Source: an uncultured Gammaproteobacteria bacterium (GTDB taxonomy: Bacteria; Patescibacteriota; Patescibacteriia; Patescibacteriales; UBA12465). From it: a DNA stretch of 64,000 nt. The translations under genes were made by a program, and so were the position numbers. Numbering within the stretch: position 1 is the first letter of the stretch; every line of letters starts with the position of its first letter. This document shows, piece by piece, positions 48,472-53,335 of the stretch. The stretch lies in the NCBI GenBank assembly GCA_964539545.1, contig CAZIJG010000004.1, forward strand, positions 8,054 through 72,053, written 5' to 3'. The notes beneath the pieces were generated by a model. The model made no database searches. It was not told where the DNA came from and was given only the letters and a program-made list of their open reading frames with translations.

Positions 48472-48803
48472 CTCACCACCTCCCCTTGTATTACTAAGCA
48501 TCAAAAAATTGTGACGCTATTGTGACTGAAAGGTGATTAAAAGTGGTAAATACTGGTAACTTCTGGCGACTTACAACAGGGAAGAATAATCGCTAACATT
48601 ACAATAATTTAGCTAGTATTAGCAACAATATCAGATAGTCCCTTTGGCGCTTCGAATCCGACCCCGGGAGCAAGCAAAAATAGGCTAACATTAGCCTATT
48701 TTTTAGTATCAAAGATATAAAAATGTCACAATTTGTGACGCTATTGTGACGTAAAACCTCAATGTTTTTGCCATTCGGTTTTTTCTTGTATCCGACCCCA
48801 AAT
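48472..48803 (+). repeat. junction unit B: conserved arm + perfect core (48651-48672) + terminator + integrase-3'-end relic + half core (48785-48800)
   Basis: ATTGTGACGCTATTGTGAC at 48508-48526; core identical to tRNA-Asn 3' end; TGTCACAATTTGTGACGCTATTGTGACG at 48724-48751. Confidence 0.85.
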
Positions 48804-48861
48804 CAACTTTTATTATATTTTTTGCTGTGATAAACTTAAATTATAATAGAATTACAAAAAT

Positions 48862-49212
48862 ATGAACAATTTTGAAAAAAATACAGAGGTTAATAAATTT
48901 GATCTAGCAAGGAAAAAAGAGAAAGAGTTTGGATATTTTGCTATAACAGCAGAAGATCATAAAGCACTCGGCAGTACCCCGGATGATATTTTAGAGGGTA
49001 GCACGGACAAGGCTTTATATGAATTTCTTTCTGATAGCGAAATCGAAGAGTATATTGAAGGAGCTGTCCAAACTATTAAAGAAAATGATGAAAATCTTCA
49101 AAAAAACGGTTATATAAATATACAGAGAGAGTTTCTGAGGGTATCGCTACCATTCTTAAGAAGTGTTAATCGTCTTCCAGAAAAATTTGCAGATTTTGAT
49201 AATAATTCTTAA
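48862..49212 (+). CDS. hypothetical acidic protein
   Basis: 116 aa ORF. Confidence 0.4.
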   Translation: MNNFEKNTEVNKFDLARKKEKEFGYFAITAEDHKALGSTPDDILEGSTDKALYEFLSDSEIEEYIEGAVQTIKENDENLQKNGYINIQREFLRVSLPFLRSVNRLPEKFADFDNNS

Positions 49213-49226
49213 GTAATGATAAGATT

Positions 49227-49463
49227 ATGAATAATATTGAACAAAAAATGTCTAAATTAATTACAATAAAAACCTATAACAATAGAATGGAAGCAGAATC
49301 TGACAAGGGCCTGTTAGAACATCAAGGTATTAAATCAATCGTCTTATCAGATGATTGCGGCGGTGCAAGTCCTCATCTGACGCTCACAAGGGGTGTTGAA
49401 CTTTTAATTAACAAAAAAAACATAGAAAAAGTTTGTCAAATTTTACAAATTAATAATGAATAA
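49227..49463 (+). CDS. small DUF2007-like protein
   Basis: 78 aa; ITIKTYNNRMEAESDKGLLEHQGIKS resembles the putative signal-transducing DUF2007 fold. Confidence 0.35.
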   Translation: MNNIEQKMSKLITIKTYNNRMEAESDKGLLEHQGIKSIVLSDDCGGASPHLTLTRGVELLINKKNIEKVCQILQINNE

Positions 49464-49863
49464 TTATATGAATGCAAGTAATTGGTATTCGCAGCTTATT
49501 AAACCATCTTGGGCGCCTCCTTCCTGGCTATTTGGCCCAGCGTGGTCATTTTTGTATATTCTCATAGCTATATCTTTTGGTAAGGTAGTTTTATTGTTTG
49601 CACAGAAAAAAATACCGTTTATAGTTTTATTGCCTTTTATCCTTAATATTATATTTAATCTATCCTTCACCTATTTTCAGTTTGGTTTAAAAAATAACAC
49701 TTTAGCTGCTATTGATATACTGCTTGTATTAGGAACATTGATTTGGGCCATGATAGTTATTTATCCATACGTACAATGGGTTGCCTATGTTCAGATACCT
49801 TACTTAGCGTGGGTTGCTTTTGCCACTGTGCTACAAATAACAATTACATACCTGAATAAATAA
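49456..49863 (+). CDS. tspO: TspO/MBR family tryptophan-rich sensory protein (short)
   Basis: WYSQLIKPSWAPPSWLFGPAWSFLY N-terminus; 4-5 TM. Confidence 0.7.
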   Translation: MNNYMNASNWYSQLIKPSWAPPSWLFGPAWSFLYILIAISFGKVVLLFAQKKIPFIVLLPFILNIIFNLSFTYFQFGLKNNTLAAIDILLVLGTLIWAMIVIYPYVQWVAYVQIPYLAWVAFATVLQITITYLNK

Positions 49864-49917
49864 CTTTGTTATAATTGTTTATTTTTTATTACAATAATAT
49901 TATTTCTCGCAGATAGT

Positions 49918-50322
49918 ATGCAAACATTTTTACCTTATAAAAGTTTTGAGAAGTCTGTTCAATTTTTAGACTACAGAAGGCTGGGGAAGCAAAGAGTGGA
50001 AGCTTATCAAATACTTAACATAATACTGAATAGAACCAAGAGTAATGGCTGGAAAAATCATCCAGCTGTTTTGATGTGGAAATGTTGTCCAAACGCTTTA
50101 AAATCTTATTTTAATATTTGCGTAGAAGAATGGGAGAGACGAGGGTATAGAAATAATATGACTAAGGAGAATATCAGGGGTAAAATTGTATATCCTCAGT
50201 GGATTGGGAATAGACAGTTCCATTCAGCTCATCGGTCTAATTTATTAAGAAAAGATTATCATTATTATTCTCAATTTAAATGGAAGGAAGGAAATGACTT
50301 GCCTTATGTTTGGCCTGTATGA
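49918..50322 (+). CDS. pyrimidine-dimer DNA glycosylase-like (Pyr_excise / DenV-related) protein
   Basis: LDYRRLGKQRVEAYQIL...GWKNHPAVLMW resembles this family; recognised from memory only. Confidence 0.45.
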   Translation: MQTFLPYKSFEKSVQFLDYRRLGKQRVEAYQILNIILNRTKSNGWKNHPAVLMWKCCPNALKSYFNICVEEWERRGYRNNMTKENIRGKIVYPQWIGNRQFHSAHRSNLLRKDYHYYSQFKWKEGNDLPYVWPV

Positions 50323-50344
50323 GAATATTCAACTAATTTCATTT

Positions 50345-50679
50345 TCATCACCTCCCCTTGTATTACTAAGCATCAAACAATTGTGACGCTATTGTGACTG
50401 AAAGGTGATTAAAAATGGTAAATACTGGTAACTTCTGGCGACTTAGAACAGGGAATAATAATAGCTAATATTACGATAATTTAGCTATTATTAGCAACAA
50501 TGTCAGATAGTCCATTTCGTGCTTCGAATCCGACCCCGGGAGCAAGCAAAAATAGGCTAAGGTTAGCCTATTTTTTAGTATCAAAGACATCAAGATGTCA
50601 CAATTTGTGACGTTATTGTGTCGGTTTTTTCTTAGATTTTAAAGAAAAAATTATTTTTAGAATCCTAACCCGAAATTAC
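50345..50679 (+). repeat. junction unit C: arm + perfect core (50523-50544) + terminator + integrase relic + variant half core (50659-50675)
   Basis: ATTGTGACGCTATTGTGAC at 50380-50398; TGTCACAATTTGTGACGTTATTGTGTCGG at 50596-50624. Confidence 0.85.
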
Positions 50680-50819
50680 TTTTATTATGTTTTTGGCTGT
50701 GATAAAGGGGATCAAATTTAAGAGTAAGGTCGAAAGGCCTATTTTTGTTTTATTTTTAGCCCAATTTTGATATAATAGTTATGTAAAAATAATAAAAAAA
50801 TAATTTATAAAATAGAATT

Positions 50820-51965: not shown

Positions 51966-52003
51966 AAATGTTAAAGAGTAATAAACTTATAGAGTAAAGT
52001 TTT

Positions 52004-52209
52004 ACTTAGTGCCACCTCCCATCACCTCTCCTTATATTGCACGCCTCACAAAAAGTTGTGACGCTATTGTGACTGAAAGGTGATTAAAAGTGGTAAATGC
52101 TGGTAACTTCTGGCGACTTAGGACAGGGAAGAATAATAGCTAATATTACGATAATTTAGCTAGTATTAGCAATAATATTTAATAGTCCATTTCGTGCTTC
52201 GAATCTAAT
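52004..52209 (+). repeat. junction unit D: arm + diverged core (TTCGAATCTAATCCCGGGAT)
   Basis: TTGTGACGCTATTGTGAC at 52048-52066; core variant at 52190-52209 directly abuts a promoter. Confidence 0.85.
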
Positions 52210-52215
52210 CCCGGG

Positions 52216-52244
52216 ATAGGATATTGACAAAAGTATATTTTCAC
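52216..52244 (+). promoter_or_regulatory. cassette promoter module copy 1
   Basis: TTGACA (52216-52221), 17 nt, TATGCT (52239-52244), then TTTTTATTAC. Confidence 0.6.
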
Positions 52245-52300
52245 GGTATGCTTTTTTATTACATTTAGATACACAAATTGTTCATTAAAAAACTATAACT

Positions 52301-52939
52301 ATGTCCAGTAAAAAAGAAAGAAGAAAGTTCAAAGCTTTTTACAACAATCAACAAACAAACAAACAGAATGTAGCCGTAGTGGCCCACTCTACCAACAGAA
52401 AGGCCAGACGTCCATCACAGGAAATTGGCGACGATATCAGAAAAATGTTGGGTAAATTAAGAGATCATTCTGTTGTTTTTCCTGAGGTTAATTCCGAGCC
52501 GATTAAATTGGGAAAACTTTATGAAGTAACAGTTAAAATTGGAGAAGATGAAGCTCAAGAAAGGCGATTGGTATATGCAACTGTAGTGCTTCCATTTGAA
52601 GAGAGTGAAGATTGCTTGACGGGATTAACAGAATTGTTTGTTAATTCAAAAAAGAAAGTTATTACTGCTCCAGAAGTGGAAAGTAAAGCCGATGTTTCTC
52701 CAGTTTTAAAAGTGTTATATCCACTTCCAATGGGCGGATATGCTATGACACCAATAACAATTTTTAACTGGTATGGTAAAGAAGAAATTGTTATGTCAAA
52801 CATGAAAGAGCCTCCTTTAGAAATTATTGAAGTAATAAATGCTCCATACTGTCATATTTTTGATATGGTTTGGTCAGGATCCTACATCGGAAGACAAATT
52901 GACGGAGTAGAGCTTTTTGAAGAAGCTAAGGTGGCATAA
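52301..52939 (+). CDS. hypothetical protein
   Basis: 212 aa ORF, basic N-terminus. Confidence 0.45.
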   Translation: MSSKKERRKFKAFYNNQQTNKQNVAVVAHSTNRKARRPSQEIGDDIRKMLGKLRDHSVVFPEVNSEPIKLGKLYEVTVKIGEDEAQERRLVYATVVLPFEESEDCLTGLTELFVNSKKKVITAPEVESKADVSPVLKVLYPLPMGGYAMTPITIFNWYGKEEIVMSNMKEPPLEIIEVINAPYCHIFDMVWSGSYIGRQIDGVELFEEAKVA

Positions 52940-52966
52940 AAAATAACCTATAAAATTAGGATTTAT

Positions 52967-52997
52967 AACCGCATAATCAATATGCGGTTCTTTTTTT
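52967..52997 (+). terminator. cassette terminator
   Basis: AACCGCATA/TATGCGGTT stem plus T7. Confidence 0.8.
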
Positions 52998-53004
52998 ACT
53001 AAAT

Positions 53005-53335
53005 TTTTAATCACCTCCCCTTGTATTACTAAGCATCAAAAAATTGTGACGCTATTGTGACTGAAAGGTGATTAAAAGTGGTAAATGCTGGTAACTTCTG
53101 GCGACTTAGAACAGGGAAGAATAATCGCTAACATTACGATAATTTAGCTAGTATTAGCAACAATATCCGATAGTCCATTTCGTGCTTCGAATCCGACCCC
53201 GGGAGCAAGCAAAAATAGGCTAACATTAGCCTATTTTTTAGTATCAAAGACATAAAAATGTCACAATTTGTGACGTTATTGTGACGTAAAATCCCAATGT
53301 TTTAGACATTTAGATTTTTCTTGTATCCGACCCCA
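53005..53335 (+). repeat. junction unit E (reference copy): arm + perfect core (53186-53207) + terminator + integrase relic (53259-53286) + half core (53320-53335)
   Basis: ATTGTGAC at 53043 and 53054; TGGTAA/TGGTAA/TGGCGA at 53079, 53089 and 53099; core identical to tRNA-Asn 3' end. Confidence 0.9.

Follow-up and report, generated by a model that had tools for sequence, protein, structure and literature searches.

The 64,000-nucleotide (nt) stretch of contig CAZIJG010000004.1 analyzed here (positions 8,054–72,053; hereafter, the window) has a G+C content of 33%, and its nearest relatives are Patescibacteria/Falkowbacteria genomes. It contains a tRNA-Asn gene and an adjoining element with genes for a tyrosine integrase (int), an excisionase-type protein with an HTH_17 domain (xis), which is a candidate directionality factor, and a rolling-circle replication initiator (rep), followed by a long array of integrase-less cassettes (Table 1). 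Our subject is three segments of this array, of about 130 bp each, which follow the perfect attachment cores of units B, C and E and which a preliminary description, made from the DNA letters only, had interpreted as int genes cut down to their last ~12 codons.

The attachment core that is copied across the array corresponds to the 3′ end of tRNA-Asn (41471-41493), as revealed by a core scan, and the hairpin adjoining the tRNA gene (41498-41524) is contributed by the integrated element. Ten core-like matches (at least 15 of 23 positions) were found on the plus strand, all of them within 41471-60347, while shuffled sequences gave 1.5 with both strands summed. From 48.4 kb on, a unit of ~200 nt occurs in seven copies (B to H), with 90-97% identity across the first 200 nt, and every copy terminates in a version of the tRNA 3′ end, whose perfect form is CTTCGAATCCGACCCCGGGAGCA. 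The cargo genes lying between units are unrelated and all on the plus strand (TspO, pyrimidine-dimer glycosylase, Rce1-like protease, RibD_C, peptidase S51 and others); altogether, at least nine integrase-less cassettes of about 0.4-2.1 kb, with co-oriented genes, are located behind the integrase-bearing element. Pfam searches did not reveal remnants of int, xis or rep in the cassettes, and in an Rfam scan of 40000-64000 the tRNA was the sole match, with no known RNA family in arms or segments. The Rep protein also matched RepSA, from pSAM2, at 8.5e-7, which is under the family cut-off of Pfam.

Table 1. Features of the tRNA-Asn locus and of the cassette array, in coordinates of the window.
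Feature	Position	Strand	Evidence or content
tRNA-Asn(GTT)	41420..41492	+	ARAGORN; Rfam tRNA, 71.8 bits; core scan
Terminator hairpin directly 3′ of tRNA-Asn	41498..41524	+	-11.9 kcal/mol, z -4.0
Tyrosine integrase, 370 aa	41532..42644	-	Pfam PF00589 1.1e-30, PF14659
P′-arm sites of the integrase-bearing element	41588..41625	+	doublet TTGTGACGCTATTGTGAC and third TGTGAC at 41620
Excisionase-type HTH_17 gene, candidate directionality factor	42654..42851	-	Pfam PF12728 1.6e-13
Rolling-circle replication initiator (Rep)	42903..43610	-	Pfam REP_ORF2-G2P 1.5e-22
Unit A, truncated upstream arm without core, perfect doublet	47187..47250	+	repeat family; alignment; Pfam NERD downstream
Unit B, junction	48474..48672	+	176-nt conserved P arm, doublet 48509-48526, perfect core 48650-48672
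Segment B (putative P′-arm module)	48673..48800	+	hairpin 48676-48703, three sites 48724-48753, second degenerate core 48785-48800
Unit C, junction	50346..50544	+	P arm, doublet 50381-50398, perfect core 50522-50544
Segment C	50545..50675	+	hairpin 50548-50575, sites 50596-50625, second core 50656-50675
Unit D, junction	52021..52252	+	P arm, variant core 52197-52219, then TTGACA-17-TATGCT promoter-like site; module absent
Unit E, junction	53009..53207	+	P arm, doublet 53044-53061, perfect core 53185-53207
Segment E	53208..53335	+	hairpin 53211-53238, sites 53259-53288, second core 53320-53335
Unit F, junction	54139..54370	+	P arm, near-perfect core 54315-54337, own terminator hairpin -14.1 kcal/mol
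Unit G, junction	56238..56470	+	P arm, variant core 56414-56436, promoter-like site 56442-56470 (11/12 match)
Junction G2	56810..56949	+	degenerate core without P arm, truncated fourth module copy
Junction G3	58846..58902	+	decayed short arm, degenerate core GTTCGAATTGTATTCTCGGAGCA, TTGACA-18-TACACT promoter-like site
Unit H, junction	60171..60398	+	P arm, variant core 60347-60369, promoter-like site 60370-60398

Anatomy of the segments and distribution of the TGTGAC motif

Segments B, C and E comprise a hairpin, a block of TGTGAC sites and a second, partial core, all of them at the coordinates reported in the preliminary description. The hairpin, AAAAATAGGCTAA-NN-TTAGCCTATTTTT with a T-run, lies 4 nt after the perfect core, is flanked by runs of A and T, and has a folding energy of -13.2 kcal/mol (z -3.5 to -5.2); its loop is GG in segment C and CA elsewhere, with the stem intact. 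The site block consists of one inverted and two direct sites, in the order TGTCACAA-TTTGTGACGYTATTGTGAC, i.e., TGTCACAA-TTTGTGACG(C/T)TA-TTGTGAC; it reads TGTCACAATTTGTGACG(C/T)TATTGTGAC in B and E, and in segment C its last site is mutated to TGTGTC. The second core is CTTGTATCCGACCCCA in B and E, and AGAATCCTAACCCGAAA, starting at 50659, in C, and the latter has GAATCCTAACCC in common with the variant core of unit G, confirming a match noticed before. This second core retains the right half of the core, ATCCGACCCC (CCTAACCC in C, as in core G), and differs in the left, T-loop half. All three segments place their second core precisely 134 nt from the first. Absent from the preliminary description were a fourth, truncated copy of the segment at 56833-56916, within junction G2, and the degenerate core at 58846; in the G2 copy, the hairpin has decayed to -4.0 kcal/mol and the site block, TGTTACAATTTGTGACGCTAT, is cut off, being followed by a TTGACG-17-TATGCT promoter-like site.

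The sites from the segments belong to a motif that is repeated throughout the locus. Allowing up to three mismatches, the 18-mer TTGTGACGCTATTGTGAC has 12 matches across the window, none of them on the minus strand (shuffles, 0.00): once in the int 3′ end, once in the truncated arm A, in each of the seven upstream arms (P arms), where it lies 140 nt upstream of the core, and in segments B, C and E. Moreover, 25 of the 28 TGTGAC hexamers found on the plus strand belong to the attachment (att) system. The copy in int falls, together with the other P′-arm sites of the element, within the last ~30 codons of the gene, where the peptide VRHNSVTI is encoded; in fact, this portion of the integrase tail, ...QKINVRHNSVTIDNLGVSNFGSKKLLNAP, is encoded wholly by the minus strand of a 23-nt form of the motif, ATTGTGACGCTATTGTGACGTAC.

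The earlier proposal of int fossils was built on the similarity between this tail and the minus-strand translation of the segments, considered as kinship by descent. The translations are LRHNSVTNCD (B), NRHNNVTNCD (C) and LRHNNVTNCD (E), and hence the peptide originally reported is a correct reading of the E copy; however, the frame has no stop after NCD and runs on through the hairpin, so that nothing ends in LRHNNVTNCD. Additionally, the motif copies from the upstream arms translate to SHNSVTIF, and that from arm A to LRHNSVTIF. These arm peptides match the integrase tail as well as those from the segments, yet they are situated at the far end of the element, where no int ended, and therefore the peptide does not constitute evidence of descent from int. 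In tblastn comparisons with the C-terminal 40 aa of the integrase, non-self matches had expect values (E) of 0.43-3.1; the best was arm A and not any junction segment (E=0.43, 8 aa), and those for segments B and E were 0.59 and 3.1, with the upstream arms scoring also 3.1 with the same HNSVTI match, and all of the matches were within the motif. Likewise, an alignment of 41465-41660 with the segments showed a shared motif of ~22 nt and nothing else, with unrelated hairpin sequences and a core-to-motif distance of 95 nt in live elements vs. 59 nt in the segments. When the motif was masked, the int 3′ region was as similar to segments B, C and E as to shuffled sequences (fractions of shuffles scoring at least as high, 0.05, 0.45 and 0.14), with T-runs as the sole matches. 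The similarity is thus that of one DNA motif and is absent beyond it, an outcome that the preliminary description had itself named as incompatible with its proposal, and the resemblance to the integrase tail is no evidence of an origin of the segments by deletion.

An intact sibling int allele, whose existence was predicted from the same proposal, was not found either: exact 21-mer scans of 185,579 GTDB genomes and of JGI metagenomes retrieved integrase-less copies only, and none among 5.8 billion proteins shared three 5-mers with either putative peptide, both being types of scan that miss diverged alleles. An exact scan for the doublet in viral contigs from IMG/VR gave no match. Separately, the tail of protein P0046, known from the protein alone, contains HNNVTN, which equals the C/E variant of the motif.

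Comparison with related integrases indicated what is being conserved. Integrases 70% identical to that from the window are found at tRNA-Asn in other Patescibacteria, in single 7-10 kb elements with one doublet inside the 3′ end of int and another 140 nt upstream of the attR core; the P′ doublet lies within int in all integrase-bearing relatives. When int was aligned with that of the 70%-identical relatives, conservation reached 89% in the 30 nt surrounding the motif vs. ~65% for the whole gene. The tail H-N-x-[V/A]-T is present in 104 of 120 homologues (43-71% identical), and four or five of the 120 have VTIASQ-like peptides in its place. These arise in integrases 43-46% identical to ours, where GTCACAATAGCGTCACA, or a close variant, occurs in another frame, giving VTIASQ or VIIAAQ. 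One example is L070, with GTCACAATAGCGTCACA in the int 3′ end (VTIASQ frame) and an identical doublet across a tRNA-Glu core; L085 and L086 show the same two-sided arrangement, and the three cases were checked on the DNA. The conserved tail peptide is not explained by protein structure, because residues 345-370 of the integrase, containing the motif, have a predicted local distance difference test score (pLDDT) below 50 in an AlphaFold2 model and are predicted to be disordered. The conservation of the motif is at the DNA level and independent of the reading frame. More generally, when a DNA binding site overlaps the end of a gene, a conserved peptide results, and copies of the site elsewhere mimic gene fossils.

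Segments and arrays in other genomes

The position of the segment could be established in seven contexts. In L068, it is directly 3′ of a genuine 3′ exon of tRNA-Asn, and the upstream chromosomal genes are syntenic with those from the window, whereas in L067, L069 and L071 it is 3′ of a degenerate core and the second core is longer, CTGTATCCCACCCTGGTAGCA. Similarity among the segments from E, L067 and L068 stops at the second core, and B and C share ~45 nt beyond it. The 30-nt site block is invariant among genomes while its flanks drift, suggesting that the block is under selection. Additionally, L075 contains the same hairpin without TGTGAC sites or second core; from this, and from the straight core-promoter junctions seen elsewhere, it follows that the segment is composite.

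A particularly informative sequence is L073, which is 98.6% identical to positions 53199-59621 of the window, a tract that takes in segment E with its second core and cassettes E, F, G and G2, through to G3. The similarity starts at 53199, within core E, and the sequence to the left is unrelated and has no P arm. The difference from this almost identical sister strain thus coincides exactly with a core; in this case, the only natural rearrangement that we could see, the break is located at the first core, and the right-hand cargo has kept its segment. The place of cassettes B-D is occupied in L073 (1-3600) by defence-like genes, specifically for a MazG-like protein, a Schlafen-type helicase with GIY-YIG, and an Mrr-type endonuclease.

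This breakpoint inside core E, together with the single 7-10 kb elements seen at tRNA-Asn in relatives, upholds the idea of serial integration at the tRNA gene that was put forward with the int fossils. The accompanying suggestion that junction relics outnumber cassettes also holds, given the second cores, G2, the core at 58846 and arm A, and these segment and core relics indicate that the array was rearranged at core-like sequences more often than the number of cassettes would imply. The second cores, G2 and arm A reflect past rearrangement rather than pointing specifically to the decay of an int gene. Because the truncated arm A sits inside the integrase-bearing element, this element is itself a composite that includes an older junction; within the element, arm A is directly 5′ of a NERD-domain gene and of a 125-aa open reading frame (47246-48436).

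The P-arm doublet was present in 11 stretches from the GTDB set, deposited as Patescibacteria (nine), uncultured bacterium (one) and Gammaproteobacteria (one). Since these stretches carry up to three arms each, the array described here is unusually long.

Origin of the segments

With a probability of roughly 70%, we favor the interpretation that the segments are P′ arms of attP-like junctions in an integrase-less array served by one lambda-type integrase, with the motif as its likely arm-type site. An element with int, xis and a rolling-circle rep would have integrated at the 3′ end of tRNA-Asn, with cassettes stacked behind it, most of which would terminate in a ~200-bp P arm and, as the core, a copied tRNA 3′ end. 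Tandem integration of attP (P-O-P′) carriers would generate P-O-P′ junctions between neighbors, and each segment would then be the P′ arm of the right-hand cassette, supplying the three copies of the TGTGAC site as well as a terminator that would close the tRNA gene were its cassette first in line. The segments are indeed at a P′ position, because they follow the cores linked to P arms (B, C and E) and the tRNA exon (L068). In integrase-bearing relatives, the P′ doublet would overlap the 3′ end of int, forcing RHNSVT onto the disordered tail, and this overlap of binding motif and gene end would account for the apparent protein similarity. The second core, reduced to its right half-site ATCCGACCCC, would most likely be the relic of an older junction joining P′ arm and cargo.

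In phage lambda, arm-type sites present in the two arms are contacted by the N-terminal domain of Int, and arm and core are bridged through DNA bending by accessory proteins (PMC4880445). By analogy, TTGTGACGCTATTGTGAC is most likely an arm-type site of the integrase from the window, whose N-terminal domain would bridge this site and the core as lambda Int does. The AlphaFold2 model of the integrase (mean pLDDT of 85.5) predicts an N-terminal sheet plus helix, a SAM-like core-binding domain, a catalytic domain and the disordered tail, with residues 2-46 predicted as beta-beta-beta-alpha (pLDDT 84-91). Using Foldseek, the model aligned over 343 columns to full-length lambda Int (1z1b) vs. ~275 to lambda constructs without the N-terminal domain, and the Tn1549 and lambda integrases ranked ahead of IntI4. 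Residues R194, H288, R291, H314 and Y323 were invariant in 53 homologues.

Several observations weigh against this interpretation. The arm-binding domain is thinly supported, with a Pfam match to Arm-DNA-bind_2 of E=0.05, under the cut-off, and a Foldseek search with the isolated N-terminal domain yielded nothing significant, AP2-type domains appearing with E=0.3 or worse. The doublet could equally bind the HTH_17 protein or a host factor. Furthermore, the second core is not part of a standard P′ arm, and the 134-nt spacing and the boundary with variable cargo would fit equally well an independent unit with two cores. The segment is not obligatory, since cassettes D, F, G and H have no P′ sites, and no circular or excised forms were observed. 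For excision or mobilization of cassettes in trans by the neighboring integrase, the sole sign, and an indirect one, is the breakpoint in core E of the sister array.

Among the alternatives, the one that best withstands the evidence, even if unlikely, concerns the protein bound: the doublet could be an operator or site of the HTH_17 protein, or of another accessory or regulatory protein, with the segments still being att arms. The HTH_17 gene adjoins int, and the direct repeats, 11 bp apart, together with the inverted copy in the segments, which produces the palindrome GTCACA-ATT-TGTGAC (GTCACAATTTGTGAC), are typical of helix-turn-helix dimers or filaments; sites for a directionality factor within attL are also known for TorI of KplE1 (PMC2951348), and the weak evidence for an arm-binding domain points in the same direction. 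Conversely, the sites flank the core on both sides in every lineage examined, which is the pattern of lambda arm-type sites (PMC4880445), and the integrase has, according to its lambda-like three-domain model, an extra N-terminal domain.

The proposal closest to the preliminary description, that each segment is what is left of a sibling element with an integrase after an internal deletion, which fused attL (core, terminator and last int codons) to the right half of the attR core of the same element, is improbable. The bounding of the segment by core-like sequence on both sides at a fixed 134-nt spacing, and the end of similarity at the second core across the different cargo contexts of E, L067 and L068, would agree with it, as would the junctions in which the core leads directly to the promoter-like site (D, G, H, L074, L079 and L082), where the segment looks like an added unit. 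Since the P′ doublet of relatives is always in int, the doublet of the segments is positionally equivalent to an int 3′ end, and element decay is an accepted origin of integrase-less relics (PMC5704250). However, the peptide match corresponds entirely to the binding motif, with no residual similarity in DNA or protein; the frame without a stop, the different spacing between core and doublet and the unrelated hairpin described above are not those of an int end, and neither the genome and metagenome scans nor the 5-mer search found an integrase with such a P′ arm. The site block is also better conserved than its flanks, as expected for a working site and not for a pseudogene.

It is very improbable that the segment is a miniature mobile unit, a portable P′ arm moved between its two cores that completes bare core-promoter junctions. 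In favor of this, its joined ends would restore a near-complete core (CTTGTATCCGACCCC plus GGGAGCA), it adjoins unrelated cargo in several genomes and its hairpin part occurs alone in L075; against it, the second core has neither left half-site nor P arm and would thus not be a competent partner under the lambda model, in the one natural comparison at hand, between L073 and the window, the breakpoint is at the first core, the segment being kept with the right-hand cargo, and B and C are conserved for ~45 nt beyond the second core.

Known systems and further features of the array

We compared the locus with known systems. As in lambda Int/att, there is a tyrosine recombinase with a predicted extra N-terminal domain, an adjoining excisionase-type gene and a short motif that recurs to the left and right of a core with the same sequence as the chromosomal target; here, however, the target is a tRNA 3′ end, the P′ sites overlap the end of int, the element carries a rolling-circle Rep and is not a phage, and binding of the motif by Int is deduced by analogy. 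Tandem accretion with integrase-less cis-mobilizable elements (CIMEs) has been defined in PMC5704250. The locus resembles the CIMEs from ICESt1-related islands of Streptococcus thermophilus in having integrase-less att units stacked beside an integrase-bearing element at a tRNA 3′ end, with the cores at 48650, 50522, 52197, 53185, 54315, 56414, 58846 and 60347 located behind int (41532-42644). Nevertheless, CIMEs are usually one or two decayed conjugative elements, whereas we found at least nine small, uniform cassettes with co-oriented genes and several conserved promoter-like sites; conjugation genes are absent here, and a decay from larger elements is hypothetical.

Tycheposons from Prochlorococcus contain a tyrosine recombinase acting at tRNA genes, with partial tRNA repeats scattered through the islands, and successive integrations push older cargo outward and leave degenerated remnants (10.1101/2020.12.28.424599). 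They share with this locus the tRNA-sited tyrosine-recombinase elements, the tRNA repeats, the serial integration and the remnants, and differ in phylum and, presumably, in integrase family, as well as in that the cassettes described here have a long, near-identical P arm with defined repeated sites. Integrons, in turn, also have one tyrosine recombinase beside small co-oriented cassettes that each end in a recombination site, but their attC is a folded site and their cassettes are promoterless, in contrast to the ~200-bp arm and tRNA-end core found here and to the promoter-like sites with which several cassettes start (D, G, G2, G3 and H). The P arm was considered as an attC-like folded site and discarded, because it folds no better than shuffles on either strand (z +0.9 and +0.2).

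Integrative plasmids of the pSAM2 type from actinomycetes also reside at a tRNA gene and combine int and xis with a rolling-circle rep. The set int-xis-rep beside the tRNA target and the weak RepSA match of the window are reminiscent of them, with the differences that this match is below the cut-off, that no transfer genes were recognized and that the host belongs to the Candidate Phyla Radiation (CPR). To our knowledge, no cassette array is known for pSAM2.

It is conceivable, but doubtful, that the locus represents an integron-like cassette platform of CPR bacteria on a lambda-type att system, in which one arm-binding integrase would capture, reorder and release promoter-led cassettes; its portable site would be the 200-bp P arm plus the tRNA-derived core, and the segment would be an exchangeable P′ adaptor that also serves as tRNA terminator. 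Our literature search did not retrieve descriptions of such an att-cassette system or family in CPR bacteria. Mobile elements of Patescibacteria are poorly described so far, and what we report, from a CPR genome that is small and streamlined, is a long array in which cassettes lacking an integrase follow a single integrase in regular tandem order; if the cassettes were individually mobile, they would be a route for the turnover of accessory genes in Patescibacteria.

In junctions D, G, G3 and H, the variant core is followed by a TTGACA-17/18-TATNNT promoter-like site with nothing between, and junction F has no TGTGAC sites 3′ of its core. The promoter-like module (TTGACA, 17-18 nt, TATGCT/TATACT, T-run and GATA) starts at least five cassettes (52222-52262, 56440-56480, 56919-56959, 58873-58914 and 60368-60408) and is also found 3′ of cores in L068, L074, L077, L079 and L082. 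The sites rank among the best sigma-70-type matches of the region, as consensus matches alone. Within the window, hairpins come after perfect cores and promoter-like sites after variant ones, but this does not hold as a general rule, because L079 and L082 have a perfect core followed by the promoter-like site.

Each P arm, as exemplified by 48474-48560, contains an inverted pair ATCACC...GGTGAT that brackets the doublet, as well as a direct repeat GGTAAAT(A/G)CTGGTAAC with 10-nt spacing, and in L085 and L086, which are distant elements, the doublet has a similar bracket, CATCAC...GTGATG, around it; all of these repeats are candidates for binding by accessory proteins. A second type of core-like sequence, GGTTCTAA(C/T)...CCCGGAGC or GGGGAGTA, occurs in the window (56810-56840), L073 (3575-3606) and L078 (~140-175), situated 5′ of segments or promoter-like sites that have no standard P arm, and may be a secondary or alternative attachment site.

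The tRNA-Asn gene of some related Patescibacteria, such as L068 (7130-7378) and L004 (11199-11467, minus strand), has its anticodon loop interrupted by a group I intron, with Rfam Intron_gpI scores of 79.9 and 83.8 bits, respectively, and is missed by ARAGORN because of this interruption; in these genomes, integrative elements and segments are 3′ of the 3′ exon. A derivation of the P-arm end next to the core (ATAGTCCA...TCGTGCTTCGAATCC) from the terminal part of the L068 intron, on its 3′ side, together with the exon was considered, but the 8-9-mer that they share is within chance.

A search for cassettes C and D at other array positions was uninformative on shuffling, retrieving either the same order or single-cassette contigs broken at repeats. 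Single cassettes appear in public assemblies as contigs of 0.9-1.5 kb (L090, L091, L093 and L094), most likely due to assembler breaks at the repeated arms, and incomplete assembly of such arrays is to be expected in metagenome bins. Finally, L077, from Patescibacteria, is a small array of very short cassettes, with three P arms in 1.8 kb (6061-7990), one of them cut short right before a TTGACA promoter-like site.

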